The translations under genes were made by a program, and so were the position numbers. Positions 12,679 through 63,324 of a stretch of DNA of 64,000 bases are shown here, in pieces. This stretch comes from a virus (lineage: Duplodnaviria; Heunggongvirae; Uroviricota; Caudoviricetes): the IMG/VR virus record IMGVR_UViG_3300008114_001632. One strand, 5' to 3'. How positions within the stretch are numbered: position 1 is the first letter of the stretch; each line of letters begins with the position of its first letter. The notes under the pieces were generated by a model. That model ran no database searches, was not told the origin of the DNA, and saw only the letters and a program-made list of their open reading frames with translations.

Positions 12679-13145
12679 TAATCAATACTCCTAAATGTAC
12701 GCCAATCATCAATGTTTGGTTTTTCGTCAGCATCATATGTCCAACCCAAAGCCTTCATCATACGATGCTTGACTAGCAAGTTTGGACTACGGAAACGTTC
12801 TGTGTCATTGAAGCCCATCATGACTCCGACTTCGCACACAGCACCACTACGACATACGCCTGCATAACAATGCACAACAACATTCATACGGTTCTCTAAT
12901 GCGTGTTGTAGCAGTCGAACAAGCTCTGCGGCCTGCTCGTGACTACACTTCATTGCTTCCTCTAACACTTCGTCTTTTTCTTCTACATCTAAAAATTCAA
13001 AGTTATGACGCTCTTTGAATTGGTGTTTAGCTTCAGGACGCCAGCTGGCAGGATCCACAATACTGATCAGCATACTGTTAGCGCCGGCGTCGTGATGGAA
13101 TCCTGTTGGAATATCAGCGGCTGCTACATTTTCAATCCAAGGCAT
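12678..13145 (-). CDS. protein-tyrosine / dual-specificity phosphatase
   Basis: HCYAGVCRSG = HCxAGxxRSG P-loop. Confidence 0.7.
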   Translation of the reverse strand: MPWIENVAAADIPTGFHHDAGANSMLISIVDPASWRPEAKHQFKERHNFEFLDVEEKDEVLEEAMKCSHEQAAELVRLLQHALENRMNVVVHCYAGVCRSGAVCEVGVMMGFNDTERFRSPNLLVKHRMMKALGWTYDADEKPNIDDWRTFRSID

Positions 13146-13546
13146 TATACTCGCTCCTTTAAGTATTTTATAGCAGATTCTAGTCTACTAATATCATCAT
13201 TCATATTACCTAACCCTAAATTACATTTATGACAAAGCCAACCTCTAAATTTTCCAGTAGCATGATCGTGGTCTGCACACCAAACTCCTTTTTTATTAGG
13301 ATTGTGTCCCTTTGCTTCTTCTTCGTTTCTGTTACAAATAGGGCATGTATAATCTTTAGGTCTAATAGGTGCAGTCGATTTTATCTTCTTCAATAAAGCA
13401 GATTGTTTCTTTGCACATGGTTTACATTCATATCTAAGATACTTTGCACCACCATCTGTACCAAACATTCCTAAAGGAAGATTCAATAAGCACATTCCGC
13501 AGGTTTTTGTTTTTTCATCAAGGCCTTCGAATAGTTCTTTTATCAT
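13145..13546 (-). CDS. endonuclease VII-like (T4 gp49 family) Holliday-junction resolvase
   Basis: [22 protein letters not shown] motif. Confidence 0.65.
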
Positions 13547-13773
13547 GATGAACGTTCTTTTTTCACACGACCAATTCGGCTAGCCTTGTTCCAAGTGTAA
13601 TCGTGACCACTTGGTAGTTTACCATTGCTCACTGTGTCAGCACCAAATATGCCAACGATTTCAAAATCTTTTCCAACGATAGTTACATATTCATTCATAT
13701 GCTTTGCAACATTCATTGCTTCAGCAAGTGTAAGAACTTTGAGTGTTTCTTCTTTTCCTATTACGTTATACAT
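13543..13773 (-). CDS. hypothetical protein
   Basis: ORF directly downstream of the consensus promoter. Confidence 0.35.
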
Positions 13774-13779
13774 ATTGCT

Positions 13780-13808
13780 ATTATATAGTCAAGTTGTAAT
13801 GTTGTCAA
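13780..13808 (-). promoter_or_regulatory. sigma70 consensus promoter TTGACA-17-TATAAT (minus)
   Basis: Exact hexamers with 17-nt spacer. Confidence 0.6.
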
Positions 13809-13893
13809 CTGGTGTGGTAAAATTAATCTTCTACCGATCCACATATAATTTTTAAAAAAAAACTACTACTAAATACTTTTTTAGGAGTTCAGA

Positions 13894-14736
13894 ATGAACA
13901 TAGGTGTGTATGGAGATAGTATTTCTAGATATGATCCTAACCAAGAATGGAATTTTGTAAGTTTATTAAAAAAAGAGTTTGATGCTAATATTGTCCATTC
14001 TGGAATCCCACATTGCAGTGAGGAAAGAATATTATTCAATTTAAAGAAAACTAAAAAACTAGATACAGCAATTATATTCCATGCCGCACCGTATCATATC
14101 TTTATGCCTAGCTGGAACAAAGATGTTTCGAACATAGACAAAACTACATTTGATAGAAAATACACTGCTCGAAATTGGGTAGAATCAATGTGGGGAACTG
14201 ACTTTAAAGAACATGATTTTTATATTGATTTTTTTGAAAACGTCCCTAACGGAGCATGTTTACAATTATTAGAATATTATAACATTCATTTTGAAAACTA
14301 TACTGATGCATTTATAAAATGGCAAGATGGGGATAGTAGTGAAATTAAACAAGCACTATTAGATCAGGTTCGAATAGCATCAGACGATGAAAAGTTTTAC
14401 CAAGAACTTTGGACTGCTTTTGAACTAACTAGAAAATATATGTATCATCCAGATTTACAATTAAACAGATACTATGGGGCATTAATGCAAATTGATTCGT
14501 ACTTGCATAATAAAAAAATACCCTGTGTACATTTTTTTAGTAAAGATCAATGGTACCCTTCTTGGTATACTATTACGTCTGGACCTGTAGATCTTTCTAT
14601 GCGCGAGCTATATAAAGATAACAGCCAATATAACATTGGTTATCAACAATCTGCTAATGCAATGAACGCAGAAGGAAATAAGATAATTTTTGACAAAATA
14701 AAAGAACTGTTGGCAACTAGTAGCACAATACCTTAA
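13894..14736 (+). CDS. SGNH/GDSL-like hydrolase family protein
   Basis: GVYGDSIS N-terminal GDS motif; AGGAG RBS. Confidence 0.4.
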   Translation: MNIGVYGDSISRYDPNQEWNFVSLLKKEFDANIVHSGIPHCSEERILFNLKKTKKLDTAIIFHAAPYHIFMPSWNKDVSNIDKTTFDRKYTARNWVESMWGTDFKEHDFYIDFFENVPNGACLQLLEYYNIHFENYTDAFIKWQDGDSSEIKQALLDQVRIASDDEKFYQELWTAFELTRKYMYHPDLQLNRYYGALMQIDSYLHNKKIPCVHFFSKDQWYPSWYTITSGPVDLSMRELYKDNSQYNIGYQQSANAMNAEGNKIIFDKIKELLATSSTIP

Positions 14737-14744
14737 ATCAATAT

Positions 14745-14821
14745 GCGACTCGTAGTAGAGTGGTCACTACACTTGGGACTGTAACCCAAGAAGCGGAGGT
14801 TCGAATCCCCCGGTCGCTCCA
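14745..14821 (+). tRNA. non-canonical tRNA-like gene (anticodon region xUGUx; possible Thr or pseudo-tRNA)
   Basis: GGTTCGAATCC T-loop and CCA; D-stem GTAG/CTAC. The acceptor and T stems conflict by 1 nt and position 33 is C, so this is a tentative call. Confidence 0.4.
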
Positions 14822-14845
14822 TAATATAAAATCATACACAGTTAA

Positions 14846-14921
14846 TGGTGCCGCCTCCCCGGATCGAACAGGGTTCCTCGGATTTTCAATCCGTTGCTAT
14901 GACCACATCAGCTAAAGCGGC
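14846..14921 (-). tRNA. tRNA-Phe(GAA)
   Basis: Hand-folded cloverleaf; anticodon loop TTGAAAA; CCA encoded. Confidence 0.75.
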
Positions 14922-15057
14922 AAAAATAAAATGTAGTAGGTTGAGACAAAACTCAATTAGTTTGCGTCACGATCTTTAACGACAGCGAGCTTATCTCTAT
15001 GAGACCTCTACTATCCGCAACACCTTTTACACAGCACCTAGCTGGTTACTACAAATT

Positions 15058-15131
15058 TGGGGTGAAGTCGGGAATCGAACCCTGGTCTACTGTTTCACAG
15101 ACAGTCGTGTTACCACTACACTAACAACACC
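15058..15131 (-). tRNA. tRNA-His(GUG) with G-1:C73
   Basis: Anticodon loop CTGTGAA; an extra 5' G pairs with C73; two U:U mismatches in the acceptor stem. Confidence 0.65.
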
Positions 15132-15137
15132 ATTGAT

Positions 15138-15212
15138 TGGCACCCCTGGATGGAATCGAACCACCGTCCCCACGTTCGTAGCATGGTATCCTATCCATTG
15201 AACGACAGGGGT
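15138..15212 (-). tRNA. tRNA-Arg(ACG)
   Basis: Anticodon loop CTACGAA. Confidence 0.7.
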
Positions 15213-15219
15213 ATATATT

Positions 15220-15294
15220 TGGCCGGCCCTGAGAGGATCGAACTCCCACCGTCGGTTTCGAAGACCGAAATGATATCCATTTCACCAAGGGCCG
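15220..15294 (-). tRNA. tRNA-Arg(UCG)
   Basis: Anticodon loop CTTCGAA; C1-G72. Confidence 0.65.
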
Positions 15295-15317
15295 TATTAC
15301 CATAGAAAAACACACTC

Positions 15318-15414
15318 GGCTCCCCTTACAACCTTGTTCCTGTCAATTCAGGATGAAACTGGATGAACCCAGAGGCTCCCCTTGGTTGTTTGTATCTGTC
15401 AATTCAGATTGAAA
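15318..15414. repeat. ~40-bp direct repeat, two copies (GGCTCCCCTT...CTGTCAATTCAG...GAAA)
   Basis: Copies at 15318-15357 and 15374-15414, lying between tRNA genes. Confidence 0.6.
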
Positions 15415-15427
15415 GTGTGTTTATCTA

Positions 15428-15503
15428 TGGTAGGAGCACCGGGACTCGAACCCGGAACTGGCAGATTAAAAGTCTGCTGTGATAACCATTTCACCATACT
15501 CCC
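15428..15503 (-). tRNA. tRNA-Lys(UUU)
   Basis: Anticodon loop CTTTTAA; perfect T stem. Confidence 0.75.
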
Positions 15504-15507
15504 GTAT

Positions 15508-15583
15508 TGGTCCACCCGGTGAGATTCGAACTCACACCTCATTGATTAAGAGTCAAGTGCGCTACCGTTAACGCTACAAGTGG
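15508..15583 (-). tRNA. tRNA-Lys(CUU) (tentative)
   Basis: Anticodon loop CTCTTAA; paralogous to the tRNA-Asn at 22008. Confidence 0.55.
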
Positions 15584-15757
15584 TTGGTCGTAATTAAATT
15601 GATTTAATGTGCCAACCAGGACCAATACGGGGTCAAGGTTGACACTAACGTTTACTTGAACGTTTCATGTCATTCTCCTATTTTAAATTTTTGTCAATAA
15701 AGTAAATTAAAGCTACTATCATAAGTAAAACTACGATCGCCCCATTTTGTTTTCTCC

Positions 15758-15949
15758 TTAATAAGATGCGTAATCACTAAACTTAGGAAACTCAAGACGA
15801 TCACGCTCAACTACCTTTATTTCATATTCATCTATATTGTCATCATAGAATTTAATCTTAAATGTGTCTTCGTCTATTTTTTCTAATATTTCGCAGTCGA
15901 CAAAATACGATCCGTACATACTAGTATCAAGATATCTAATCGTTGGCAT
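15758..15949 (-). CDS. hypothetical small protein
   Basis: AAGGAG RBS. Confidence 0.4.
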   Translation of the reverse strand: MPTIRYLDTSMYGSYFVDCEILEKIDEDTFKIKFYDDNIDEYEIKVVERDRLEFPKFSDYASY

Positions 15950-15967
15950 ATATTTCTCCTTTAAAGT

Positions 15968-16043
15968 TGGTAGTGATGGTCGGACTCGAACCGACGATAA
16001 ACTCCGTATGAAGGAGGTACATTAGCCGCTATGCTACATCACT
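15968..16043 (-). tRNA. tRNA-Met/Ile2(CAU)
   Basis: Anticodon loop TTCATAC. Confidence 0.7.
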
Positions 16044-16044
16044 A

Positions 16045-16118
16045 TGGCAGGGGTACTAGGGTTCGAACCTAGACTAACAGAGTCAAAGTCTGTGGTGCTA
16101 CCATTACACTATACCCCA
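16045..16118 (-). tRNA. tRNA-Gln(UUG)
   Basis: Anticodon loop CTTTGAC; U1:U72. Confidence 0.65.
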
Positions 16119-16240
16119 ATAAATTTGGCACTTCGTTAGCCACACCGCTTTGGACACGGATCTAGACCCCTGCTTCCACAGGACTTATAGGCTTCAATAC
16201 TACATTCCGCTACGAAGCCCGAGCGGATTGTTGCAGTAAC

Positions 16241-16318
16241 TGGAGCACAGGGTGAGATTCGAACTCACGGTTTTGCGGATTTGCAATCCACTGCATTGGG
16301 CCTCTCTGCCACCTGTGC
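16241..16318 (-). tRNA. tRNA-Cys(GCA)
   Basis: Anticodon loop TTGCAAA. Confidence 0.65.
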
Positions 16319-16325
16319 GTATTAC

Positions 16326-16400
16326 TGGCCTCGCCTACAGGAATCGAACCCATATTCGTAGGGTAGAAGCCTACTGTATTATCCATTATACTAAAGCGAG
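16326..16400 (-). tRNA. tRNA-Arg(UCU)
   Basis: Anticodon loop CTTCTAC. Confidence 0.7.
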
Positions 16401-16407
16401 TTATACT

Positions 16408-16481
16408 TGGCGTACCTCCAGGGACTCGAACCCCGACGAACAGTTTTGGAGACTGTGATGCTGCCATTACATTAGAGATAC
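16408..16481 (-). tRNA. tRNA-Trp(CCA)
   Basis: Anticodon loop CTCCAAA. Confidence 0.75.
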
Positions 16482-16488
16482 ATTAATT

Positions 16489-16563
16489 TGGTAGCCACGG
16501 ACAGTTTCGAAATGTCGACCTATCGCTTATCAAGCGAGTGCTCTTCCTCTGAGCTACGCGGCT
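16489..16563 (-). tRNA. tRNA-Ile(GAU)
   Basis: Anticodon loop TTGATAA; unusual T arm. Confidence 0.6.
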
Positions 16564-16568
16564 ATGTT

Positions 16569-16654
16569 TGGTGGAGATGACTGGAGTCGAACCAGTAGTG
16601 CCCGAAGGGCGGCGGATTTACAGTCCACTGGGGTTACCAATTTTCCTACATCTC
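16569..16654 (-). tRNA. tRNA-Tyr(GUA), long variable arm
   Basis: Anticodon loop CTGTAAA. Confidence 0.75.
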
Positions 16655-16714
16655 CAAACTTAGTGACACTCTCCGCTATGCTTTTAGACGCCGTCGCAGG
16701 GCGAATGAAGAGTG

Positions 16715-16794
16715 TGTAGTTAAGAACACTAATAACGCCTTTTACAAAGTTCTGGGCTATGAGTCCAGTCGTCCCTATAGTGTTCTTAACTACT
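16715..16794. repeat. 16-bp perfect inverted repeat (GTAGTTAAGAACACTA / TAGTGTTCTTAACTAC) with 46-nt loop
   Basis: Reverse-complementary arms at 16715-16731 and 16778-16794. Confidence 0.6.
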
Positions 16795-16899
16795 CTAGGA
16801 TTTTAACATCTGTGTTGTCGCCACAGACTTCATCCCCTAGGCCGCCCATTTGCTAGTTTAAAGTGATAGCAGGATCTCGTTTCCTATAGCACTAAAAGA

Positions 16900-16946
16900 A
16901 AAACCCCCGGAGTATTTTACATTCCGAGGGTCTTTTTGTTTTTTGA
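16900..16946. terminator. bidirectional rho-independent terminator
   Basis: CCCCCGGAG...TCCGAGGG hairpin flanked by an A-run and a T-run. Confidence 0.55.
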
Positions 16947-17095
16947 GCTGTTACTGGTTATGCGTAACTTGCTCCTACAGAAAGGCCCTCGCCTGGTAGT
17001 CGATACCAGCGAATGCAAAACATCTGATGTTTTCTAATTTGCTTAAACATTTTGATCATCTTTCTTTCTGTTAGTTAATTTCTTACTATGTGTAT

Positions 17096-17124
17096 AGTAT
17101 ACTGTATTTATTTATCTCTGTCAA
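17096..17124 (-). promoter_or_regulatory. sigma70-like promoter TTGACA-17-TATACT (minus)
   Basis: Hexamers with 17-nt spacer, upstream of the tRNA array. Confidence 0.55.
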
Positions 17125-17194
17125 GAGATTTTCTTTAAAAAGTGACAAAAATATTGTTGTATTTTTGCCACACTCTTGAATACGGAAACATTTC

Positions 17195-17269
17195 TGGTAC
17201 CTGGTCACGGTTTCGAACCGCGGACCTTCGCCGTGTAAAGGCGTTGCTCTACCCCTGAGCTAACCAGGC
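17195..17269 (-). tRNA. tRNA-Val(UAC)
   Basis: Anticodon loop TTTACAC. Confidence 0.7.
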
Positions 17270-17276
17270 AAATTCT

Positions 17277-17951
17277 TTAGTCCTTACGACCACCAAATAG
17301 TTGTAGTAACATTAAGAACAAGTTGATAAAGTCTAAGTACAAGCTAAGAGCGCCTGCAATTTCTGCCTTACCATCATTGTCGTAACTAACCATCTCACGA
17401 ATCTTTTGTGTGTCGTATGCTGTTAAGCCTAAGAACACAATAATTCCGATAGCACTAATGACCATTTGAAAAACTGTACTACCAATAAAAATATTGATTA
17501 TACTTGCAATAACAATCGCAATCAACCCAATGAACATAAATTGGCCAACTCCGTCCAAATTACGTTTAGTGAAGTAGCCATAGCCACTCATTGTAGCAAA
17601 TAGAACGGCAGCTCCCATGAATGCGCTTACAATGCTTCCCATGTTATATACTACAAAGATTGTAGCAAAACTTAGACCCATTAATGCGGCAAATCCATGT
17701 AAAAATAGCTGTAACGCACTCTTACTCATTTTGTCCATTGCAAAGCTAACGCCAAGAATGGCTACAAGCGGCGCAAAGATTACAAGCCATTTCATTGCGC
17801 CTGTAAAGAAAAATTCCATCAGCGTTGTATTTGATCCTACAAGATAACTTACAATCATTGATGTGATAACTGCCAGTGCCATATGTCCGTAAACACGGCC
17901 CATTGCACTATTAATCTGCGATGCAGAACGAAAAACACCTGTTGCATACAT
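17277..17951 (-). CDS. Bax-inhibitor-1 / YccA (TMBIM) family membrane protein
   Basis: 7-TM profile with BI-1 family conserved C-terminal region. Confidence 0.7.
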   Translation of the reverse strand: MYATGVFRSASQINSAMGRVYGHMALAVITSMIVSYLVGSNTTLMEFFFTGAMKWLVIFAPLVAILGVSFAMDKMSKSALQLFLHGFAALMGLSFATIFVVYNMGSIVSAFMGAAVLFATMSGYGYFTKRNLDGVGQFMFIGLIAIVIASIINIFIGSTVFQMVISAIGIIVFLGLTAYDTQKIREMVSYDNDGKAEIAGALSLYLDFINLFLMLLQLFGGRKD

Positions 17952-18597
17952 AAGTTTGTCTCCTTTGTAAGATTACTTATAAAAAAACGAAAGTTAGCAA
18001 GTAAGTAATGAACTGTGCAAGGTGCAAACGGGCTGAGGTTACTCTAGGCCCTAAGCAAATTACAATATGCAAAGCACAGTGGCTTGCGTATTTCCGAACA
18101 GCAAATCACAAGTTCGATAGATTCGGGGCATACAAACACGATCAGTTTTCAAGACTGATTGCCAGTATTGGAGTCATCGCATGAAGCGATAACGGTGTTC
18201 ATCCTCATCTCTCGCCTTCTTCCGGGTAGTTTACTGTTACCAGCATACTACCAAAACCTTATAGGTGCTCTCTGTTGGAATCGAACCAAACTGTTTAACT
18301 CCGTATCTTCCTTGCACGTTCAGCAGTTAGTCGACTTAGTACCTACTGGTGTTCTCAAGTGTAGTTAAACTTCAAAGAGCATTTATAAAGTGTCTAGCTA
18401 CTCACACCACATGAGCCCTAGACTGAGCGGTTACTCTGTCCATAACATTTATTCTTTTGGAAAGGTGCTAAACCTCACCTAATGCGTCCCCGGATTCCCT
18501 ACACGGGATCGGAAGGCCAATGCACTACACGCCTAGCACTCTTTATGGTGACTGCCCCACCCCCTGTGTATAACGGGCAAGGGAGCCCGGGTTTTCC

Positions 18598-19170
18598 TTA
18601 GATCAATTCTTCGTGCTTAAGAATGTCCACAGCCTTACCACTTAGGGCAATAGTTGTACGAACATTAAGCTCTAAGAGCTCGTCCTGCAATTTCTGCTTG
18701 GCCTTTTTGGCTTCTGCTACTTTTGCACGGAATGTATCTACATCTTTGCGAGTCAATACAGAAGTACTAACTTCATCACTGTGGCCGTACAAACTTGCAC
18801 GAGTGTCTTCTTTGCGGTTCCGAATTTTATTCAACTTGCCCTCAATGACTTGAGCAGACTCACGAACGTCATGAGCTGTTAGACCTGAAAAGAATTGGAT
18901 ATCTTTCTCAAGCTGAGCCAAGTCTGCCAACTTTTCATTGACACCTGCTTGTGCATTTGCACGGCTCACTGCCTTGCGAATTTCGTACAGCACATCTGTC
19001 AGTGCTACACGACGAAACACATTGCTGTTAAATTCCTGAGCAGCCTTAGATATTTCAGCTTCAGCCTCTTGGAACTCGTTGATGCGAATTGTTTGTGTCA
19101 ACGTGATACTTTTAACAGTATCGTTGATGCTGTTCTGAAGTGCGCTTGCTTTACGAAGTGTAAGTTCCAT
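18598..19170 (-). CDS. coiled-coil hypothetical protein
   Basis: 190-aa helical ORF; promoter-like element at 19199-19225. Confidence 0.4.
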   Translation of the reverse strand: MELTLRKASALQNSINDTVKSITLTQTIRINEFQEAEAEISKAAQEFNSNVFRRVALTDVLYEIRKAVSRANAQAGVNEKLADLAQLEKDIQFFSGLTAHDVRESAQVIEGKLNKIRNRKEDTRASLYGHSDEVSTSVLTRKDVDTFRAKVAEAKKAKQKLQDELLELNVRTTIALSGKAVDILKHEELI

Positions 19171-19240
19171 GTTTGTGTCCTTTTCTCTATGTGTTAATTG
19201 TATATGATTTGTGTCTACTTGTCAAGTATTTTTTAATGTC

Positions 19241-19330
19241 TGGCGGAAGCGGTGAGATTCGAACTCACGGACCCTTTCGAGTCTTTAGTTTTCAAGACTA
19301 ACGCAATAAGCCGGGCTCTGCCACGCTTCC
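19241..19330 (-). tRNA. tRNA-Ser(UGA), long variable arm
   Basis: Anticodon loop CTTGAAA. Confidence 0.7.
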
Positions 19331-19344
19331 TTTGAAAATAAAAC

Positions 19345-19423
19345 TGGTTGCGGAGGCAGGATTCGCACCTGCGATCTCTAGCTTATGAGACTAGCGAGGA
19401 CGACTGGACTCCTCTACTCCGCT
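19345..19423 (-). tRNA. tRNA(CAU) - Met or lysidine-Ile; atypical (A1:A72, T-loop TGCGAAT)
   Basis: Anticodon loop CTCATAA. Confidence 0.55.
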
Positions 19424-19619
19424 TCAAAATATTATACAGCTGACAACTCATTAGTACTTCCATCGTTATAAGCACCATTCACCCGAATTAACAAGCTCGA
19501 GCGGGACTCGGTACGTCACTTGGGATACTAGTCCAGTTAGCAACCAATCTGCGCCGATCTTCCGATCAGCCGGGAGTTGAACCCGTCCCCTTCTACTATA
19601 TCAGTCCTTCGAAGAAACC

Positions 19620-19648
19620 TTTATAGCGTGACATTCTCTTGCTGACAA
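19620..19648 (-). promoter_or_regulatory. sigma70-like promoter TTGTCA-17-TATAAA overlapping palindrome TGACAACGAATTGTCA
   Basis: Hexamers 17 nt apart; perfect 6-bp inverted repeat at 19643-19658. Confidence 0.4.
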
Positions 19649-19799
19649 CGAATTGTCATGTGCATAACATTTCTGCTATTCTGAAACACACTACGACATT
19701 GTTATACAACCAGCTCTAATTGCTGTTTGTGGTAATGTGTTTTAGAATAGTGTTAAGACTGAGATTACATCTTAACCATAAGCACCTCTAGCATTACCG

Positions 19800-20510
19800 T
19801 ACACCTTGCGAGTATACGTTCTCTAGACATCCACTAAGTCCATATCACTATGTAACCTAGTCTGCTTACAGTATCGCCGTTTTAAGTCAGGCAGTAGACT
19901 TGACGCCATATGCTATTCTACACCATCTATTCCGTTAACCTTGCGAGCTATTCGAGTGCGCTAACACCCTACGAAACTTCCAGTATAAACTAATGTTACC
20001 TTGCGAGCTTCATTAGACTTGATTGTGTTACCACTCAAGTATTAGATACTTTTCACATACGACCGAGGCAGTCTTTGCATTTTTGTTTAAATGATCGGAT
20101 TTGAACCGACAGCATTCTTCTTAACAGGAAGATGATCTACCATTGATCTACATTAACCTACCGCGATGAGCTGCCTCAGTTGCTTCATACTCTTTTGGAA
20201 TACAAAATACAACTCACCACATACCTTTTGCCTCGCGAGCTACTCAGTGATGTTTCACGATCGGTGTACTGTATTACTACAGCCCACTAACCATTTACAT
20301 TGTATACGAGCTCTTAGGTGCGACCCCTCGAACAAGTACACTACCCTTTCTCATACCAACTAACTGATTGGTTTTATATGGAAGTCAGCACCACCTGTTA
20401 CTTTTCACTGCCCCGTGTTCCTTGCGGCACGTCGAACAATGTTCTTTCCCATACATCAGCTTTGCTGTTACATCCACCGGTCTTATGAGTGAACGCTACC
20501 TCGCGGTAGT
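19800..20510. repeat. array of >=6 degenerate copies of motif (T)TACCTTGCGAG(C) in an ORF-free region
   Basis: Copies at 19801, 19935, 19995, 20229, 20416 and 20494, with diverged flanks. Confidence 0.55.
20086..20160 (-). pseudogene. degenerate tRNA-Asn(GUU)-like pseudogene
   Basis: D, anticodon (CTGTTAA) and T arms fold; acceptor stem 5/7; no CCA. Confidence 0.4.
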
Positions 20511-20650
20511 GAGCAGGCTTGTTTACGTGAACCATTGCTGGCGCTAGTATGTAGGCATTCTAGCTTTGGGTGTGTCGCCACACTTATTCTTTGTAAACGG
20601 CAAGCCGCCTACAGGATGATAAACCACCCTTAAATTCTTAACATGTGTCT

Positions 20651-20679
20651 ATTTTAGCAAATTTTTACTGTCTTGTCAA
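20651..20679 (-). promoter_or_regulatory. sigma70-like promoter TTGACA-17-TAAAAT reading into the ORF-free repeat region
   Basis: Hexamers with 17-nt spacer. Confidence 0.45.
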
Positions 20680-20708
20680 CATCTTTTTAAAAATATTTCT
20701 AAAACATT

Positions 20709-20782
20709 TGGAGCGGGTAGCGAGAATCGAACTCGCGAATAAACCTTGGCAAGGTTTCAGGTTACCATTACATCATACCCGC
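20709..20782 (-). tRNA. tRNA-Gly(GCC)
   Basis: Close to E. coli tRNA-Gly(GCC); anticodon loop TTGCCAA. Confidence 0.8.
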
Positions 20783-20787
20783 ATATT

Positions 20788-20862
20788 TGGTGGACCGTCG
20801 GGGGATCGAACCCCGACCTAAGCCTTGCAAAGGCCCCGTGCTCCCATTATCACTAACAGCCC
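20788..20862 (-). tRNA. tRNA-Ala(UGC)
   Basis: G3:U70 identity pair; anticodon loop TTTGCAA. Confidence 0.8.
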
Positions 20863-20868
20863 AAAAAA

Positions 20869-20946
20869 TGGTCGGAGTACAAGGATTCGAACCTTGGACC
20901 CCCTGGTCCCAAACCAGGTGCGCTAGCCAGACTGCGCCACACTCCG
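20869..20946 (-). tRNA. tRNA-Pro(UGG)
   Basis: C1-G72; loop TTTGGGA. Confidence 0.7.
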
Positions 20947-20947
20947 A

Positions 20948-21172
20948 TTATACTTTTCTTAGATACTCTCTACCAATTTTGCCTTCTTGAATTTCAAGCA
21001 GTGCAGAAACTGGCGCATTAACTTGGGTAGACATTTCGTCGTTCCTGTGTTTCCTTGCTATTTCTCTAGCTCTAACTGAAGCAATTAATACTAGATCAAA
21101 TCTACCACCAACATTTTCAACACATTTATTAGTATCAATAGTTGGACCACGACTTAAAGTTTTTGCTTTCAT
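20948..21172 (-). CDS. rpoZ: RNA polymerase omega subunit (RpoZ)-like protein
   Basis: GGRFDLVLIASVRAREI and LLEIQEG match E. coli omega GNRFDLVLVAARRARQ and ALREIEEG. Embedded in the tRNA operon. Confidence 0.6.
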   Translation of the reverse strand: MKAKTLSRGPTIDTNKCVENVGGRFDLVLIASVRAREIARKHRNDEMSTQVNAPVSALLEIQEGKIGREYLRKV

Positions 21173-21188
21173 ATCTACCTTTTAAAAT

Positions 21189-21262
21189 TGGAGCGGGATA
21201 TCAGAATCGAACTGATGACCGAAGATTGGAAATCTGCTGTTTTACCATTAAACTAATCCCGC
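21189..21262 (-). tRNA. tRNA-Gly(UCC)
   Basis: Anticodon loop TTTCCAA. Confidence 0.7.
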
Positions 21263-21273
21263 TTACTAACATT

Positions 21274-21356
21274 GGTGCCCCAGGTCGGACTCGAACCGAC
21301 ACGCCTTGCGGCACTGGCTTCTAAGACCAGCGTGGCTACCATTACACCACCGGGGC
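21274..21356 (-). tRNA. tRNA-Leu(UAG), long variable arm
   Basis: Anticodon loop CTTAGAA. Confidence 0.7.
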
Positions 21357-21370
21357 AAAAACTAACACTT

Positions 21371-21444
21371 TGGTGCCCCTACACAGAATCGAACTGCAAA
21401 CTACGGATTACAAAACCGTCGTTATACCATTTAACTATAAGGGC
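21371..21444 (-). tRNA. tRNA-Thr(UGU)
   Basis: Anticodon loop TTTGTAA. Confidence 0.7.
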
Positions 21445-21497
21445 AAAAACTTTCTATATTTTAATTGTACACTCTTTACAATCAAAGTCAACTAATA

Positions 21498-21574
21498 TGG
21501 CGCACCGTAGGGGACTCGAACCCCTGGCCTCTTGCGTGACAGGCAAGCGATCTAACCAACTGAGCTAACGGTGC
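21498..21574 (-). tRNA. tRNA-Asp(GUC)
   Basis: Anticodon loop CTGTCAC. Confidence 0.8.
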
Positions 21575-21829
21575 AAAATCTTTAATAAATTGTTTGAGGA
21601 AGTTCTTGACACGCATCACCAACTTGCGTCAAGACCTCATTACAGGCCTAGTAGTTCCGCCGCCTTCCTGGAGTTTGGAATAGTTCTTGCCCTTTGACTC
21701 GATGGTGTCTCGTCATACTCTAGAACCCTCCTGCTTCATGGGTATCAAGGCCGAGCATTTCTGCTACGCAATCACCTTTTCGTTCACCCCTAGCGGACTA
21801 GGTAACCTTAAACAACTTACTAAAAAACT

Positions 21830-21904
21830 TGGTACACGATACGAGAATCGAACTCGTCTTTCCGCCTTGAAAGGGCAGCGTCCTAACCGATAGACGAATC
21901 GTGC
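21830..21904 (-). tRNA. tRNA-Glu(UUC)
   Basis: Anticodon loop CTTTCAA. Confidence 0.7.
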
Positions 21905-21912
21905 ATTTAATT

Positions 21913-22002
21913 TGGCGGAGCGTCAGGGAGTCGAACCCTGTGACCCTTTTTACGTGATCTACGGTTTAGCAAACCGCTGCCTTACCATCCGGCCCACGCT
22001 CC
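21913..22002 (-). tRNA. tRNA-Ser(GCU), long variable arm
   Basis: Anticodon loop TTGCTAA. Confidence 0.7.
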
Positions 22003-22007
22003 TAAAT

Positions 22008-22083
22008 TGGCTCCTCAGCGTGGGATCGAACCACGGACACCTTGATTAACAGTCAAGTGCAACTACCGCTGTGCTACTGAGGA
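22008..22083 (-). tRNA. tRNA-Asn(GUU)
   Basis: Anticodon loop CTGTTAA; perfect acceptor stem. Confidence 0.8.
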
Positions 22084-22190
22084 ATAAATCTGCTTTCAAC
22101 TGTACACTTTTGTACACAGATGAAAACAGATTAATCTGTTTCCGTATTCAACTTTTTAAAGAACGTTTGTAAACTTGTTACAGTTTACGT

Positions 22191-22219
22191 AGTATAACAC
22201 CGAAAAAGTTCTGTGTCAA
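22191..22219 (-). promoter_or_regulatory. sigma70 promoter TTGACA-17-TATACT for the tRNA operon
   Basis: Hexamers with 17-nt spacer. Confidence 0.6.
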
Positions 22220-22283
22220 CTACTTTTTAAAATCTTTTTACTTGAACAACTCTGCAGCCGCTTTGTTGTTTAAGTAAGTGTCT

Positions 22284-22312
22284 ATTGTATTGCCTTATTG
22301 CTTGCCTGTCAA
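22284..22312 (-). promoter_or_regulatory. second tandem promoter TTGACA-17-TACAAT
   Basis: Hexamers with 17-nt spacer. Confidence 0.5.
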
Positions 22313-22337
22313 CTGTTTTTTTGTTGTTTTTACGCAA

Positions 22338-22371
22338 CAAAAAACCCTGGGTGTTTAGTCCAGGGTTTTTA
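22338..22371. terminator. bidirectional rho-independent terminator
   Basis: CCCTGG-GTGTTTAGT-CCAGGG hairpin between A6 and T5. Confidence 0.7.
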
Positions 22372-22566
22372 AAGTTTGTTAGTGCTTACTTACAACTTCA
22401 TAACCCTAGTCATGGTGGCGTCACTGCCTGGATTCTCTGATCCAAGTGTTGTTGACGCTACGGGGGATAGTGTTACGAATAGCATTGAAAGCATTTCCTT
22501 TTTCATATATTTTATTTATCCCAGTTCTAAAAAACTACCTTATAATAGGCTCAAAACGGAGATTTG

Positions 22567-22944
22567 TCAACCAACCTCTTGTATGTTTGAAATGTTAAGT
22601 TCAACTGCTTGAACTCGATCATATCGAAAACTACGCCAGTTGTCAGCGTCTATGTCCCAAACATTGATTGTGCCAGGCTTGCTTGGCTTTGAACTGTTGG
22701 ATGGACGTGACTTTTCTGGAATATAATTCAAACTTTTTGTACAGGTCATAATTCTTTGATCACCGTCTAGTTTGAGGAACGTCACTCTTAGGATCTGTTC
22801 TTTGAGCATCTGGGTCAGGGCTTCCTCTGTTGGGATCCCTTTTAGTGCCGCCATTGTATCTTGTACCGTAGATTCGGTCCCATCCACTGCTGTATTTTGC
22901 ATCATCTGCGCCTTTTCTTCTTGCACTGCCTTTTCCTCCGTCAC
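22567..22944 (-). CDS. hypothetical protein
   Basis: ORF upstream-adjacent to clpP in the same operon. Confidence 0.4.
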   Translation of the reverse strand: MTEEKAVQEEKAQMMQNTAVDGTESTVQDTMAALKGIPTEEALTQMLKEQILRVTFLKLDGDQRIMTCTKSLNYIPEKSRPSNSSKPSKPGTINVWDIDADNWRSFRYDRVQAVELNISNIQEVG

Positions 22945-22947
22945 TCA

Positions 22948-23565
22948 TTATCGTTTCTCTACAACTTTATCTGCTAAACCGTAATCAACCGCTTCTTGTG
23001 CATTTAAGAAAGTATCAAATTTCATTGTTTCAAAAAGCTCATCGTATTGTTTGCCTTTGGTGTTGTGTTTGACATACAGCTCGGTTAATCGCTTGTTGAG
23101 TTTTTTACTTTCTTCCATTGAACGAATAGCATCTTCAAATTGAAGTTCTTGTACATGAACTGAACCACGTGTTCCAGGAGTACCTGAACTAACTCGATGT
23201 ATCATAGTACGGCTTTCAGGCAGTACTACTCGCTTACCTGCCGTGCCTGCTTGTGCTAGGAACGAGCCCATTGAACATGCCTGACCCATGACAATAGTAC
23301 GAATATCACATTTGATGTACTGCATTGTGTCGTAGATAGCTAGTCCTGCGGTAACTGCACCGCCAGGCGAATTAATATATAGGTTAATGTCTTTGTCTGG
23401 ATTCTCTGCTTCTAAAAATAATAACTGTGCTACAATTACATTAGCCATATTATCTTCTACAGGGCCGTTGAGCATAACAATTCGATCTTTGAGCAAGCGG
23501 CTGTAAATATCATATGAACGCTCGCCGCGAGTCTCTTGTTCAACAACCATTGGGATTAGTGGCAT
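22948..23565 (-). CDS. clpP: ATP-dependent Clp protease proteolytic subunit ClpP
   Basis: Full-length ClpP with the Ser-His-Asp region (GQACSMGSF...MIHRV). Confidence 0.9.
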
Positions 23566-23807
23566 TATCTTCTTCCTTCGTAAGTAATAGTTTCTTTTGG
23601 GCCAGCAGTAGTAAACTCAAGACCTGCCATCGAGCCAACATAGTTATTGCCTCGATGATTAAATTTAAGTATCATTTTAATTTTTCTTTGTATACTTACA
23701 CTAATAAGCATGCCTGGGCGAAATTCTAGGATTTCAGCTGGCACTATTTCATTTTTATCCGTGCAGTGCAGATCAACAGTATCTGCGTATGTTTTTTTAA
23801 CTGTCAT
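23565..23807 (-). CDS. hypothetical protein
   Basis: ORF. Confidence 0.3.
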
Positions 23808-24028
23808 TATCTTAATTCCATTAGTTTGAGATTTAGTACAAAATTCTCTACTAGTAGTTTAACAATAATAGCCTTGTTTGTCAAGTTATCATTATTCATC
23901 TCAAGTACATGGGAAGCCATAAGTTCATAAGCATCATGTTCACTAATAGCTAACATGCCCCAGTCAATAGGATCTTCCATTTCAACTTCCATAGCAAGAT
24001 CTACTAGAGTTCTTACATCTCGATTCAT
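23807..24028 (-). CDS. hypothetical protein
   Basis: ORF. Confidence 0.3.
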   Translation of the reverse strand: MNRDVRTLVDLAMEVEMEDPIDWGMLAISEHDAYELMASHVLEMNNDNLTNKAIIVKLLVENFVLNLKLMELR

Positions 24029-47284: not shown

Positions 47285-47345
47285 GTTATGTTTGTTAATG
47301 CATCTAATTTTAAGTTTAATAAAGACTTTCTCCTATGCTTAACTC

Positions 47346-62735: not shown

Positions 62736-62737
62736 AG

Positions 62738-62764
62738 AAAAGCACCCGAGGGTGCTTTCTGGTA
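62738..62764. terminator. bidirectional terminator AAAGCACCCGAGGGTGCTTTCT
   Basis: Hairpin plus T-runs on both strands. Confidence 0.65.
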
Positions 62765-63120: not shown

Positions 63121-63324
63121 TTAAGCAGGCTGAATATTGCTAGCCTGTTGTCCTTTCATACCCATTGTGACTTCAAATCTTACGCTCTGACCTTCTTGTA
63201 GACTTTTGAAGCCACCTGAATTAATCTGAGAGAAATGAGCAAAAAGGTCTGCTCCGCCGCTATCCGGTGTAATGAATCCAAAACCTTTGGCGTCGTTAAA
63301 CCATTTTACTTTTCCTGTTACCAT
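63121..63324 (-). CDS. cspA: cold-shock protein CspA family
   Basis: [15 protein letters not shown]1 and VFAHFS RNP2 motifs; long 5' UTR. Confidence 0.85.

Follow-up and report, generated by a model that had tools for sequence, protein, structure and literature searches.

In this analysis of a 64,000-nucleotide stretch of viral DNA (the window), we characterized an island of 27 tRNA genes, 26 on the minus strand and one on the opposite strand, whose anticodons represent 20 of 20 amino acids (Table 1). We consider it quite probable that the island supplies about one tRNA per codon box and so sustains translation largely without the host pool. Huge-phage tRNA islands that enclose a GOLLD RNA are already known, and this one is of that kind.

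On sequence grounds, the source is a freshwater phage, uncultivated, whose genome spans at least 316 kb. Across positions 13000-26000, the window shows 100% identity to metagenome contigs that come from several samples and reach 316,657 bp. Related tRNA islands occur on dozens of IMG/VR contigs, the relatives being viral contigs 200-360 kb long in which as many as 34 tRNAs lie within 16 kb. Some window proteins match PHROG virion and tail-fiber families, and most window ORFs have no family match. Huge phages encode up to 67 tRNAs per genome, plus tmRNAs and tRNA-modification enzymes (Al-Shayeb 2020, PMC7162821). These contigs, relatives and published genomes uphold the view in a preliminary description of this DNA that it belongs to a huge phage, for which a large tRNA complement is typical. 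The other translation-related genes of the window are a two-piece tmRNA and a TilS-like protein that comprises the N-terminal lysidine-synthetase catalytic domain only (PP-loop SGGVDS; top PDB match A. aeolicus TilS, 1wy5, 4e-15).

Two independent detectors, ARAGORN and an Infernal search with RF00005, the tRNA model of Rfam (gathering score 29), were concordant for 28 of 28 tRNA calls in the interval 14745-22083, of which 27 lie on the minus strand and one on the plus strand. All 28 reach the gathering score, with 47.7-67.2 bits for the minus-strand tRNAs, and CCA is encoded in 27. Each of the 26 stand-alone minus-strand tRNAs has non-identical homologs (87-99%) in other huge-phage arrays, in a set of 2164 tRNAs from 162 loci that were each independently called as a cloverleaf. 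The plus-strand tRNA-Thr(UGU) encodes CCA, carries two stem mismatches and has a closest homolog only 68% identical among these 2164. After re-registering, tRNA-His(GUG) reads with the bacterial G-1 and an encoded CCA; two U-U mismatches lie in its acceptor stem. The coordinates and isotypes of the 27 genes (26 minus, one plus) in the preliminary description match both sets of calls exactly, the single difference being an extra call, tRNA-Asn(GUU) at 20085-20157, within the GOLLD RNA. Its claim of all-20-amino-acid coverage also holds, as ARAGORN on both strands recovered more than 20 tRNAs and left no amino acid uncovered. The three arrays that it delimited (14846-17269, 19241-19423 and 20709-22083) stand as coordinates, but the island is interrupted by GOLLD, an rpoZ-like ORF, the 190-aa family, a Bax1-I/YccA-like ORF and conserved structured spacers.

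The GOLLD match spans the full RF02032 model (Rfam-modelled part 19756-20220, 5' domain 20221-20643), and full-length homology over 888 nt is kept in 11 distinct relatives. GOLLD has been found near tRNA islands, and its linker sometimes holds tRNAs (PMC12286853; PMC6582537). We rejected the linker call as a 28th free decoding tRNA, since it lies inside GOLLD, has no CCA and has an acceptor stem reduced to 4 bp; its GC content is 35.6%. In the covariation test, pairing is 100% in its D, anticodon and T stems, where double changes are numerous, and its anticodon among relatives is GUU, UUU or CUU. We infer that this tRNA-like domain, covalently attached to GOLLD, belongs to the structure of that RNA.

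The gaps between the tRNAs carry conserved structured RNAs that were absent from the preliminary description. The clearest of these, E1, has strong covariation support and stands outside the curated RNA families, with no match in Rfam. It is built of seven helices, including a T-arm-like hairpin, with invariant joining regions, and is found in at least 97 phage loci, seven by single-sequence nhmmer (L010, L035, L039, L007, L014, L038 and L045) and 90 by profile, where it usually occupies a "tRNA slot". Among 71 distinct copies, the share of paired cells is 97.8%, versus 33-47% in slid controls, and 318 cells are double changes. A2 combines a 7-bp acceptor stem and a T arm (GUUGG-UUCGAUU-CCAAC) with a long internal domain that replaces the D and anticodon arms; its acceptor, T and internal stems covary among 10 distinct copies, and neither ARAGORN nor Rfam calls it a tRNA. 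A1 comes after the 190-aa gene in many phages, and Element B lies upstream of that gene in most relatives and upstream of Bax1-I here. E2 stands before the first tRNA of its array, as in 20 loci with a conserved E2, in a 539-nt gap with a whole-gap fold z-score of -7. E3 contains an internal duplication, CUGAAUUGACAG and GGGGAGCC being present in two copies each, and is kept in five other phage loci, and E4 includes a hairpin and adjoins tRNA-Lys(CUU) on the upstream side.

Among the protein genes, that for the 190-aa protein is a hallmark of such tRNA islands. Its family has 566 members, none annotated, and its AF2 model is all-helical (pLDDT 85.8) and matches no PDB fold at E<=0.001. The Bax1-I protein has a weak YccA match in NCBIfam, the rpoZ-like ORF carries Pfam RNA_pol_Rpb6 on identical contigs, and the 63-aa ORF gave no match in family searches.

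Consensus promoters for the arrays, as proposed earlier, are borne out: between 13.5 and 23 kb, seven minus-strand sites agree with TTGACA-N17-TAnnnT in at least 11 of 12 positions, versus a mean of 0.2 over 200 shuffles, none of which gave more than 2. Over the whole window, near-consensus sites number 19 versus 1 on the two strands. Downstream of the promoter at 17096..17124 come a 33-aa ORF (16958-17059) and, at about 16905-16950, a strong hairpin that resembles a terminator. Host RNA polymerase would initiate at several of these near-perfect sigma-70 sites to yield long precursors, which host enzymes would process to the 26 minus-strand tRNAs, with RNase P acting at the 5' ends and 3' trimming to the encoded CCA. 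E1, A1/A2 and E2-E4 would probably be freed from shared precursors by the same cuts that release the neighboring tRNAs, and GOLLD would be made from its own promoter inside the island.

Table 1. Features of the tRNA island and other translation-related genes of the window.
Feature	Position	Strand	Evidence
tRNA-Thr(UGU), orphan	14745..14821	+	ARAGORN; Rfam 31.0 bits vs gathering score 29, borderline
tRNA-Phe(GAA), CCA encoded	14846..14921	-	ARAGORN, Rfam; 97% homolog in another phage array
tRNA-His(GUG)	15058..15131	-	ARAGORN, Rfam; 92% homolog
tRNA-Arg(ACG)	15138..15212	-	ARAGORN, Rfam, homologs
tRNA-Arg(UCG)	15220..15294	-	ARAGORN, Rfam, homologs
E3, structured spacer, 133 nt	15295..15427	-	fold z-score -3.6 to -4.8
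tRNA-Lys(UUU)	15428..15503	-	ARAGORN, Rfam, homologs
tRNA-Lys(CUU)	15508..15583	-	ARAGORN, Rfam, homologs
E4, conserved element, ~100 nt	15584..15685	-	nhmmer matches in 39 related loci
63-aa ORF within array	15758..15949	-	also called as gene on identical contigs
tRNA(CAU) no. 1, elongator type	15968..16043	-	ARAGORN, Rfam, class comparison
tRNA-Gln(UUG)	16045..16118	-	ARAGORN, Rfam, homologs
tRNA-Cys(GCA)	16241..16318	-	ARAGORN, Rfam, homologs
tRNA-Arg(UCU)	16326..16400	-	ARAGORN, Rfam, homologs
tRNA-Trp(CCA)	16408..16481	-	ARAGORN, Rfam, homologs
tRNA-Ile(GAU)	16489..16563	-	ARAGORN, Rfam, homologs
tRNA-Tyr(GUA), class II	16569..16655	-	ARAGORN, Rfam, homologs
E2, structured leader, ~245 nt	16656..16900	-	fold, conservation
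Sigma-70 promoter TTGACA-17-TATACT	17096..17124	-	consensus match
tRNA-Val(UAC)	17195..17269	-	ARAGORN, Rfam, homologs
Bax1-I / YccA-like membrane protein, 224 aa	17277..17951	-	Pfam PF01027, 1.7e-53
Element B, conserved leader, ~300 nt	17952..18250	-	repeated UUGUGAnUUGC motifs
A2, tRNA-like element, 117 nt	18264..18380	-	covariation
A1, conserved non-coding element, ~215 nt	18383..18597	-	36 loci
190-aa protein, function unassigned	18598..19170	-	46 IMG/VR loci, nearly all within tRNA arrays
Sigma-70 promoter, upstream of 190-aa gene	19197..19225	-	consensus match
tRNA-Ser(UGA), class II	19241..19330	-	ARAGORN, Rfam, homologs
tRNA(CAU) no. 2, initiator-type variant	19345..19423	-	ARAGORN, Rfam, class comparison
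E1, conserved structured RNA, ~215 nt	19440..19660	-	fold z-score -5.4, covariation
GOLLD RNA, ~890 nt	19756..20643	-	RF02032, 201 bits vs gathering score 150
GOLLD tRNA-like linker, called tRNA-Asn(GUU)	20085..20157	-	ARAGORN, RF00005, covariation test
GOLLD sigma-70 promoter TTGACA-17-TAAAAT, TG before it	20651..20679	-	consensus match
tRNA-Gly(GCC)	20709..20782	-	ARAGORN, Rfam, homologs
tRNA-Ala(UGC)	20788..20862	-	ARAGORN, Rfam, homologs
tRNA-Pro(UGG)	20869..20946	-	ARAGORN, Rfam, homologs
RNA polymerase omega (rpoZ)-like ORF, 74 aa, within array	20948..21172	-	TIGR00690, 32.4 bits vs cutoff 23.6
tRNA-Gly(UCC)	21189..21262	-	ARAGORN, Rfam, homologs
tRNA-Leu(UAG), class II; sole Leu tRNA of window	21273..21356	-	ARAGORN, Rfam, homologs
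tRNA-Thr(UGU)	21371..21444	-	ARAGORN, Rfam, homologs
tRNA-Asp(GUC)	21498..21574	-	ARAGORN, Rfam, homologs
tRNA-Glu(UUC)	21830..21904	-	ARAGORN, Rfam, homologs
tRNA-Ser(GCU), class II	21913..22002	-	ARAGORN, Rfam, homologs
tRNA-Asn(GUU), stand-alone	22008..22083	-	ARAGORN, Rfam; 97% homolog
Tandem sigma-70 promoters (two), upstream of first array	22284-22312, 22191-22219	-	consensus match
Bidirectional terminator hairpin	22340-22370		
Third sigma-70 promoter	22542-22570		consensus match
TilS-like protein, 211 aa	27556..28191	-	TIGR02432, 108.8 bits vs cutoff 93.6
Two-piece (permuted) tmRNA, tag ANSSEYALAA	62711..63172	-	ARAGORN; RF01850, 166.9 bits vs 84; RF04321, 144.1 bits vs 47

The two CAU tRNAs were classified by comparison with 163 CAU tRNAs from relatives. 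No. 1, with a paired A1-U72 and the anticodon loop UUCAUAC, is most likely an elongator tRNA-Met; that it is instead a lysidine-modified tRNA-Ile2, and hence the AUA decoder, is doubtful. No. 2 has an A1xA72 mismatch followed by G2:C71, C3:G70 and G4:C69, together with A73, A11:U24, an 11-nt D loop without GG and the T loop UGCGAAU, and the same subtype occurs in relatives, there with C1xA72. It is odd for an initiator type in that the three G:C pairs are absent and the elbow is non-canonical.

Codon choice in the phage leans toward NNA and NNU, and the NNA codons are matched by its U34 tRNAs. The anticodons, mostly U34 and G34, suit this preference for A- and U-ending codons, an initiator-type tRNA is included, and the only decoders missing would be those of UUA, UUG and probably AUA. 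There is no Leu-UAA/CAA tRNA within the 64-kb window, although 45% of Leu codons are UUA or UUG, and probably no AUA decoder either (AUA is 25% of Ile codons). The set is therefore near-complete, as had been claimed, at the level of amino acids, but its codon coverage is not, and independence from the host is incomplete, at least within the window; further tRNAs may lie elsewhere in the phage genome.

Another possible explanation for the set is selective codon compensation. The sole lead to a host comes from the phage ClpP, which shares 74% identity with the ClpP encoded on the chromosome of Marinobacterium/Oceanospirillaceae. Relative to this lineage, a candidate host only and sampled through about 4,900 codons of a single 20-kb locus, the phage shows no more than a modest enrichment of exact-cognate codons (mean log2 +0.23 vs -0.28, p = 0.04). 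Of the 12 codons most enriched in the phage, 11 can be read by its tRNAs, a count that includes AUA only if CAU no. 1 carries lysidine, which the class comparison makes doubtful. The set also serves codons that the phage under-uses, and it therefore resembles a basic set with one tRNA per box rather than a selected subset. The codon-usage or translation-takeover strategy suggested earlier is thus a candidate reading only. With the host lineage still a candidate, the pattern of the set agrees better with a general independence of host tRNAs than with selective compensation.

A variant contig, L005, retains part of the tRNA set only, which, if real, would make the full set dispensable. The role of the island is most likely to keep phage translation running with little reliance on host tRNAs, the phage tRNAs presumably being charged in the infected cell. 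Such a supply would benefit the phage where the host pool is ill-matched to its AT-rich genes, is depleted in infection, or is cleaved by host anticodon nucleases.

ARAGORN called 28 tRNA genes in 14745-22083, 27 on the minus strand and one on the plus strand, and the Rfam tRNA covariance model RF00005, run independently, scored the same 28 at or above the curated threshold. The preliminary description had listed 27 tRNAs, for all 20 amino acids, in arrays downstream of consensus promoters; its tRNA coordinates and isotypes agree exactly with both methods, the anticodons called bear out the full repertoire, and the calls neither fall below about 20 nor leave several amino acids uncovered. The one additional call is a tRNA-Asn(GUU) that is part of GOLLD, a large RNA discussed below, and because this call is best read as a GOLLD domain, the functional count comes to 27, coinciding with the number first given. 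The promoters are also borne out: seven minus-strand sites with at least 11 of 12 matches to TTGACA-N17-TATAAT lie in 13.5-23 kb, against a mean of 0.2 and a maximum of 2 in 200 shuffles of the sequence, and across the whole window such sites number 19 on the coding strand and one on the opposite strand. The 26 minus-strand stand-alone tRNAs score 47.7-67.2 bits with RF00005 (gathering score 29), with ARAGORN concordant, and all have a 7-bp acceptor stem, a discriminator base and an encoded 3' CCA, the CCA being present in 27 of the 28 calls; tRNA-His, its register shifted by one base, has the bacterial G-1:C73 pair and then CCA. Spacers inside the sub-arrays measure 1-14 nt. Each of the 26 has non-identical homologs at 87-99% identity in other huge-phage arrays, along with numerous others at 80% or more, and every homolog was independently called as a cloverleaf. 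Because these diverged homologs are all still called as cloverleaves, we argue that tRNA function has probably been maintained.

The plus-strand tRNA-Thr(UGU) is borderline with RF00005 (31.0 bits against 29); it encodes CCA, has two stem mismatches, and its best homolog among 2164 related-phage tRNAs is only 68% identical. Preceded by a 280-aa ORF, for which no protein family or homolog search gave a match or a detectable relative, this orphan completes the sole plus-strand unit of the island, which runs convergently towards the minus-strand array and may have been inserted as a module. A relaxed ARAGORN search of the gaps for missed tRNAs (introns allowed, threshold 80%) yielded only intron-containing calls that were not plausible and a single weak 'permuted tmRNA' (18123-18559), all of which we rejected because Rfam is empty there at E ≤ 1. 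Coordinates of the features discussed are collected in the table.

Features of the tRNA island and associated genes, with coordinates in the window
Feature	Coordinates	Strand	Remarks
Plus-strand unit	13894-14821	plus	280-aa ORF, then tRNA-Thr(UGU)
tRNA-Thr(UGU)	14745-14821	plus	
E3, internally duplicated spacer	15295-15427	minus	5 loci
E4	15584-15685	minus	upstream of tRNA-Lys(CUU); 39 loci
CAU no. 1 tRNA	15968-16043	minus	
E2, structured leader	16656-16900	minus	ahead of the array's first tRNA; 20 loci
33-aa ORF	16905-17059	minus	with strong terminator
B leader, about 300 nt	17952-18250	minus	repeated UUGUGAnUUGC motifs; ahead of the 190-aa gene in most relatives, of the Bax1-I gene here
A2, tRNA-like element, 117 nt	18264-18380	minus	acceptor (7 bp), T and internal stems covary across 10 distinct copies
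A1, conserved non-coding element	18383-18597	minus	after the 190-aa gene in 36 loci
190-aa ORF	18598-19170	minus	
CAU no. 2 tRNA	19345-19423	minus	
E1	19440-19660	minus	
GOLLD	19756-20643	minus	
tRNA-Asn(GUU) call (linker tRNA)	20085-20157	minus	within GOLLD
GOLLD promoter	20651-20679		TTGACA-N17-TAAAAT
rpoZ (RNA polymerase omega) homolog, 74 aa	20948-21172	minus	between tRNA-Pro and tRNA-Gly
ClpP	22948-23565		
TilS-like protein, 211 aa	27556-28191	minus	
Cellular-type signalling/envelope genes	42141-44186; 45550-48593	minus	CHASE2-adenylate/guanylate cyclase, FecR-domain protein, CsgG-like lipoprotein with SH3 domain
Two-piece (circularly permuted) tmRNA, betaproteobacterial type	62711-63172	minus	tag ANSSEYALAA (ARAGORN)

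Two of the tRNAs carry the anticodon CAU. Bacterial initiator identity, as established in the formylation and initiator literature, consists of a 1:72 mismatch, G2:C71, C3:G70, A73 and A11:U24. CAU no. 2 combines initiator acceptor features (an A1xA72 mismatch, G2:C71, C3:G70, G4:C69 and A73) with A11:U24; it lacks the three consecutive G:C pairs of the anticodon stem (CUAGU/GCUAG, with G30:C40 as the sole G:C pair), as do the initiator-type tRNAs of relatives. The D loop is unusual, as is the T loop (UGCGAAU), and the same 79-nt subtype occurs in relatives, there with the canonical C1xA72 mismatch. CAU no. 1, with anticodon loop UUCAUAC, belongs to the only class of elongator CAU tRNA in this phage group, and relatives have a separate tRNA(UAU) with a long variable arm for AUA; from these two observations, CAU no. 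1 is most likely an elongator Met. We also considered it as a tRNA-Ile2, over which the class comparison in relatives favours elongator Met without settling the question. The UAU tRNAs of relatives (L010:2811-2900, L045:769-860 and 51 other copies) are 90-92 nt long, with a class II-like long variable arm and a short D arm, an architecture that is unusual for an AUA decoder; none was found in the window. Some related arrays additionally hold tRNAs with a CUA anticodon, amber suppressors that ARAGORN labels 'Pyl' (L028:10762-10838, L153, L175 and L244), several of which lie 20 nt downstream of the spacer element E1.

Overall, the set amounts to about one tRNA per codon box, mainly with U34 and G34 anticodons. 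Leu-UAA and Leu-CAA tRNAs are absent from the window calls, UUA and UUG making up 45% of Leu codons, and a decoder of AUA (25% of Ile codons) is probably missing from the window too. Together UUA, UUG and AUA represent 5.3% of all codons in a count of 16,193, and a further 15.4% of codons are uncovered if U34 reads A and G only. Because relatives commonly own Leu-UAA (69 copies), Leu-CAA (65) and UAU (53) tRNAs, these gaps are specific to this phage or to this window. The TilS-like protein scores 108.8 bits with TIGR02432 (cutoff 93.6), and its SGGVDS motif aligns with A. aeolicus TilS (1wy5), its best PDB match. It comprises only the N-terminal PP-loop catalytic domain, the C-terminal tRNA-binding domain(s) being absent, and reaches 61.7 bits with the full-length TilS model NF007942 (cutoff 606); the class comparison of the CAU tRNAs revealed no clear Ile2-type substrate for it in the window. 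The tmRNA is matched by RF01850 (166.9 bits against 84) and RF04321 (144.1 bits against 47), and in a related phage the tag of the permuted tmRNA (L031:16117-16521) is much longer.

What such a set is for depends in part on the host, and the best lead comes from ClpP, whose chromosomal counterpart in Marinobacterium sp. xm-d-530 and Oceanospirillaceae MAGs shares 74% identity with it and stands in a tRNA-tig-clpP-clpX context; cellular matches beyond Marinobacterium and Oceanospirillaceae reach at most 56% identity. A closer ClpP match, L060 at 89%, was discarded as a host, being a mis-binned phage contig with 20 tRNAs. We therefore compared the codon usage of 91 crudely called window genes (16,193 codons) with that of a stand-in host of about 4,900 codons from one Marinobacterium clpP locus, the host being assigned from ClpP similarity alone. 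The phage, at 39% GC, prefers NNA and NNU codons, and U34 tRNAs are an exact fit to NNA. Relative to the stand-in host, phage tRNAs can decode 11 of the 12 most phage-enriched codons, provided in the case of AUA that CAU no. 1 carries lysidine; UUA, also among the 12, is read by no window tRNA. As to the codon-usage strategy suggested in the preliminary description, codons for which the phage has an exactly matching tRNA show a modest enrichment (mean log2 +0.23 versus -0.28; Mann-Whitney p = 0.04), and the set equally includes tRNAs whose exact cognates the phage under-uses (AUC, UUC, UAC, AAC and CAC). A broad, basic set is more in keeping with a general independence of the host's tRNA pool than with selective compensation. 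Such independence would be of use against poor codon match, host tRNA depletion or cleavage by defence nucleases, and a function of the island in translation takeover or codon usage is plausible.

A narrower version of this idea, possible if somewhat doubtful, is that the island mainly replaces host tRNAs that are degraded or cut by anticodon nucleases or other tRNA-targeting defences, from which the diverged phage copies would escape. T5 tRNAs reportedly evade anticodon nucleases, and host tRNA degradation is said, in work on a Vibrio phage, to drive the acquisition of phage tRNAs. In a published case, a phage tRNA gene counters a defence that cleaves tRNAs: Septu cuts tRNA-Tyr, and T6 escapes it through amplification of its own tRNA-Tyr gene (PMC13096335). 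Full replacement would need just such a broad, one-per-box set; compared with tRNAs of like anticodon from the candidate host lineage, the phage tRNAs reach only 59-68% identity, and several have odd anticodon loops, such as those with C38 in Arg-UCU, CAU no. 1, Gln and Val. The sequence, however, gives no sign of such host defences or of host tRNA loss, protein family scans of the window showed no RNA-repair genes of the Pnkp or Rnl type, and computation alone does not separate this account from that of host-pool independence. Pure codon compensation, a mechanism proposed in T4-like phages and mycobacteriophages whereby tRNAs are selected singly for codons that the phage uses often and the host seldom, is unlikely here. 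It would account for the A- and U-ending preference of a 39% GC phage, for the enrichment of exact-cognate codons, and for the exact phage tRNA that matches each of AGA, GGA, ACA, GUA, CAA, GCA, GAA and CGA, the most phage-enriched codons relative to Marinobacterium sp. xm-d-530, a host assigned from ClpP. It does not account for a set of about one tRNA per box that also serves the five under-used codons, or for the lack of any window tRNA for UUA and probably for AUA, both of them among the three codons most enriched in the phage. The missing UUR and probably missing AUA decoders argue against simple codon compensation as the whole story.

In addition to tRNAs, the gaps of the island hold conserved non-coding elements, and folding z-scores relative to shuffled sequence are -5.4 for the gap 19424-19755 and -7 for the gap 16656-17194. 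E1, which lies in the first of these, had homologs in seven earlier-fetched loci; scanning viral contigs for a 15-nt motif gave at least 116 loci, at least 90 of which hold E1 by profile search, bringing the total to at least 97 loci (copies include L010:3972-4190 and L182:39-261). In most loci E1 has tRNA orientation and stands 2-7 nt past one tRNA and 4-7 nt ahead of the next, that is, in a tRNA slot. The window copy is not flush with its neighbours, and its closing stem has been replaced yet is still complementary. Seven helices are supported by 71 distinct copies, with 97.8% of cells paired versus 33-47% in slid controls and 318 double-change cells versus 10-52, values that none of 500 shuffles reached. 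The RNA, of about 215 nt, features a T-arm-like hairpin and invariant joining regions. Searches with the 4227 covariance models of Rfam 15 gave no match to it at E ≤ 1 over 9.5 kb, and no meaningful match at E ≤ 10 for a 241-nt stretch of the best copy. We considered a minimal RNase P RNA, in which GAGAAAGUCAC and UGAAUGG would recall CR-I (GAGGAAAGUCC) and CR-IV; the supported helices, which pair GUCA/GUC with UGAC/GAC, are unlike P4, and RNase P covariance models found no match on E1. A bacterial Y RNA (YrlA) was set aside, there being no Rfam match and no Ro/TROVE protein among the proteins scanned. E1 may be among the 8,495 unnamed IMG/VR RNA candidates of PMC10690425.

Among the companion elements, B, E2, E3 and E4 are conserved in 5-44 loci. 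In A2 a long internal domain replaces the D and anticodon arms, and tRNA finders do not call it; in relatives it is immediately followed by an initiator tRNA (CGCGGG...CCCGCAACCA) that is deleted in the window. Protein-coding genes are embedded as well. The 190-aa protein, the hallmark of related islands, received no function from Pfam, PHROGs, NCBIfam or PDB sequence searches or from its 566-member homolog list; its AlphaFold2 model is all helical (pLDDT 85.8), and the best Foldseek match in the PDB (E = 0.015) is a protein of unknown function. The rpoZ-like homolog has a second, weaker copy in the cassette type carried by the related contig L005. Non-tRNA RNAs within a phage tRNA array have a parallel in T4, whose cluster of 8 tRNAs reportedly gives rise to a precursor that also yields the stable RNAs 'species 1 and 2' (rnaC and rnaD), said to be about 120-140 nt, of unknown function and freed by tRNA-processing enzymes. 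For E1, A2 and E2-E4 this likeness is drawn from descriptions of the T4 RNAs.

The largest RNA of the island is GOLLD, which RF02032 matches at 201 bits (gathering score 150) over 19756-20220, a match that spans the whole model (positions 1-416 of 416). The homology shared with 11 distinct relatives stretches it to about 888 nt, adding a 5' domain that is outside the Rfam model, and an alignment of 11 distinct homologs of about 890 nt has 83% mean column identity and visible compensatory changes, with a conserved 3' domain and a more variable 5' domain. Its setting is that of a phage, beside tRNA genes and with a tRNA in the linker, and it has its own promoter directly upstream. The linker tRNA has conserved GOLLD sequence on either side. 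In the 11 relatives its D, anticodon and T stems show 100% pairing and numerous double changes, and overall 95% of cells are paired versus 37-53% in slid controls; in the acceptor stem, pairs 4-7:66-69 are kept, the outer three are unpaired, and CCA is absent. The anticodon varies at position 34 alone: most relatives have GUU, L005 and L049 have UUU, and L010 has CUU. These features point to the linker tRNA being a built-in tRNA-like domain of GOLLD, in accord with the 'covalently linked tRNAs' of cryo-EM work, which resolved one marine GOLLD as a 14-mer nanocage (PMC12286853), and with the 'pseudo-tRNA' within mycobacterial GOLLD (PMC6582537).

GOLLD is also where the related contig L005 changes type. 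L005 follows the window at 99.2% identity between 26000 and, in descending order, 19733, beyond which the two sequences are completely divergent. Of the 78 sites in its GOLLD that separate two parental types, the first 22 are window-type and the last 56 are of the type of L049, with a single switch between alignment columns 372 and 474, and over the following 6.8 kb L005 matches both L048 and L049 at 100%. L005:10415-18110 is accordingly a single-crossover mosaic, window-type to mid-GOLLD and then carrying the downstream tRNA cassette of the L048/L049 type. Either a real crossover took place inside GOLLD, or an assembler joined two co-occurring strains over about 100 identical bases; a real recombinant would carry just 19 tRNAs in the part covered, duplicates included.

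One reading, which we consider quite possible and hold tentatively, joins the RNAs of the island. E1 would be the founding member here of an undescribed class of RNAs of about 215 nt in tRNA slots, with A2 and E2-E4 perhaps representing further classes; E1 would be excised by the enzymes that mature its neighbouring tRNAs and would act, as GOLLD may, on tRNA or the translation apparatus, for instance by docking at the tRNA elbow via its two T-loop-like motifs. GOLLD, in turn, would provide a homology anchor for cassette exchange between co-infecting phages. That the arrays are instead selfish, recombination-spread mobile cassettes in which many members are decaying, non-functional pseudo-tRNAs is very unlikely. 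The modularity of the island, with an entire downstream cassette swapped in L005, the wide differences in gene order among relatives, the orphan tRNA-Thr and the loss of the relatives' initiator tRNA would all be in keeping with such cargo. However, every one of the 26 minus-strand stand-alone tRNAs scores well above threshold and keeps CCA, their diverged homologs are cloverleaves, the promoters are intact, and L005 may be an assembly chimera, its parents sharing about 100 identical nt at the junction.

The source of this DNA is an uncultivated freshwater huge phage. Its ClpP is sequence-identical on many metagenome contigs, the longest of 316,657 bp, and five of six fetched loci are 100% identical to the window across 13000-26000. 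Homologs of the 190-aa ORF occur on 46 IMG/VR viral contigs, many of them 100-280 kb, and nearly all lie within large tRNA arrays of up to 34 tRNAs in 16.5 kb; the relatives being tRNA-rich viral contigs, the region was correctly taken for a huge-phage tRNA island from the outset. We found no cultivated relative: megablast of the 9-kb island against 50,697 phage records returned only a short tRNA-Ser match to Xanthomonas jumbo phages. The window also carries cellular-type signalling and envelope genes. That it is a piece of bacterial chromosome or megaplasmid with a Mycobacterium-like 'tRNA array unit' is very improbable: GOLLD-bearing tRNA arrays are found on mycobacterial chromosomes and plasmids (PMC6582537; PMC5966550), cellular-type genes are present (ClpP, CHASE2 cyclase, CsgG, IMPDH/GMP-reductase-like, radical SAM and tmRNA), and the close relative L060 was binned in a bacterial MAG, but IMG/VR classes the relatives as viral, the genes are nearly all on one strand, tightly spaced and mostly without family, a few match PHROG virion and tail-fibre families, rRNA and core housekeeping genes are absent from the 64 kb, and similarity to cellular genomes is confined to single genes.

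Huge (>200 kb) phages are well known for their large tRNA complements, for tmRNAs and for genes of tRNA modification, and they carry up to 67 tRNAs per genome (Al-Shayeb et al. 2020, PMC7162821). The present phage, of more than 300 kb and from an environmental metagenome, resembles them in its dozens of clustered tRNAs unlike those of the host, its tmRNA and its tRNA-modification enzyme; it differs in its compact, one-per-box set of 27 tRNAs against that maximum, and in that the 64-kb window showed no aminoacyl-tRNA synthetases, initiation factors or ribosomal proteins. GOLLD itself (RF02032) is as described before, a large RNA in a phage tRNA island with a conserved 3' domain, a variable 5' domain and a linker tRNA (Weinberg 2009; Kretsch 2025, PMC12286853; PMC6582537; PMC7549688). 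To those accounts we add the 4-bp acceptor without CCA, the variation of the anticodon at position 34 only, the consensus promoter of its own and, in one variant contig that is either real or a chimera, a crossover inside GOLLD that exchanges the downstream cassette. Mycobacterium 'tRNA array units' are similar in having about 30 tRNAs for most amino acids and an embedded GOLLD with a pseudo-tRNA, and a phage origin has been suggested for them (PMC5966550; PMC6582537). Those units are linked to an HNH endonuclease and reside on chromosomes, plasmids or mycobacteriophages of high-GC Actinobacteria, whereas the window belongs to an AT-rich freshwater huge phage with other embedded genes and RNAs.

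Altogether, a tRNA island with GOLLD is an already known phenomenon, of which this is one more well-resolved example, and its value lies in its detail: the basic, incomplete set, the GOLLD series and the spacer RNAs. The island provides a near-minimal decoding set and not a hand-picked one, in which the UUR and probably the AUA decoders, seemingly those most needed, are left out. The function of GOLLD has been open since 2009, and the locus supplies a comparative series of 11 full-length homologs that reveals a linker tRNA with a truncated acceptor stem and an NUU anticodon. The newest content is E1 and its companion elements, together with this comparative detail on the GOLLD linker. With strong covariation, at least 97 loci and no Rfam entry, E1 is a concrete candidate for experiments, and the 'spacers' of huge-phage tRNA arrays prove to be full of conserved structured RNAs.
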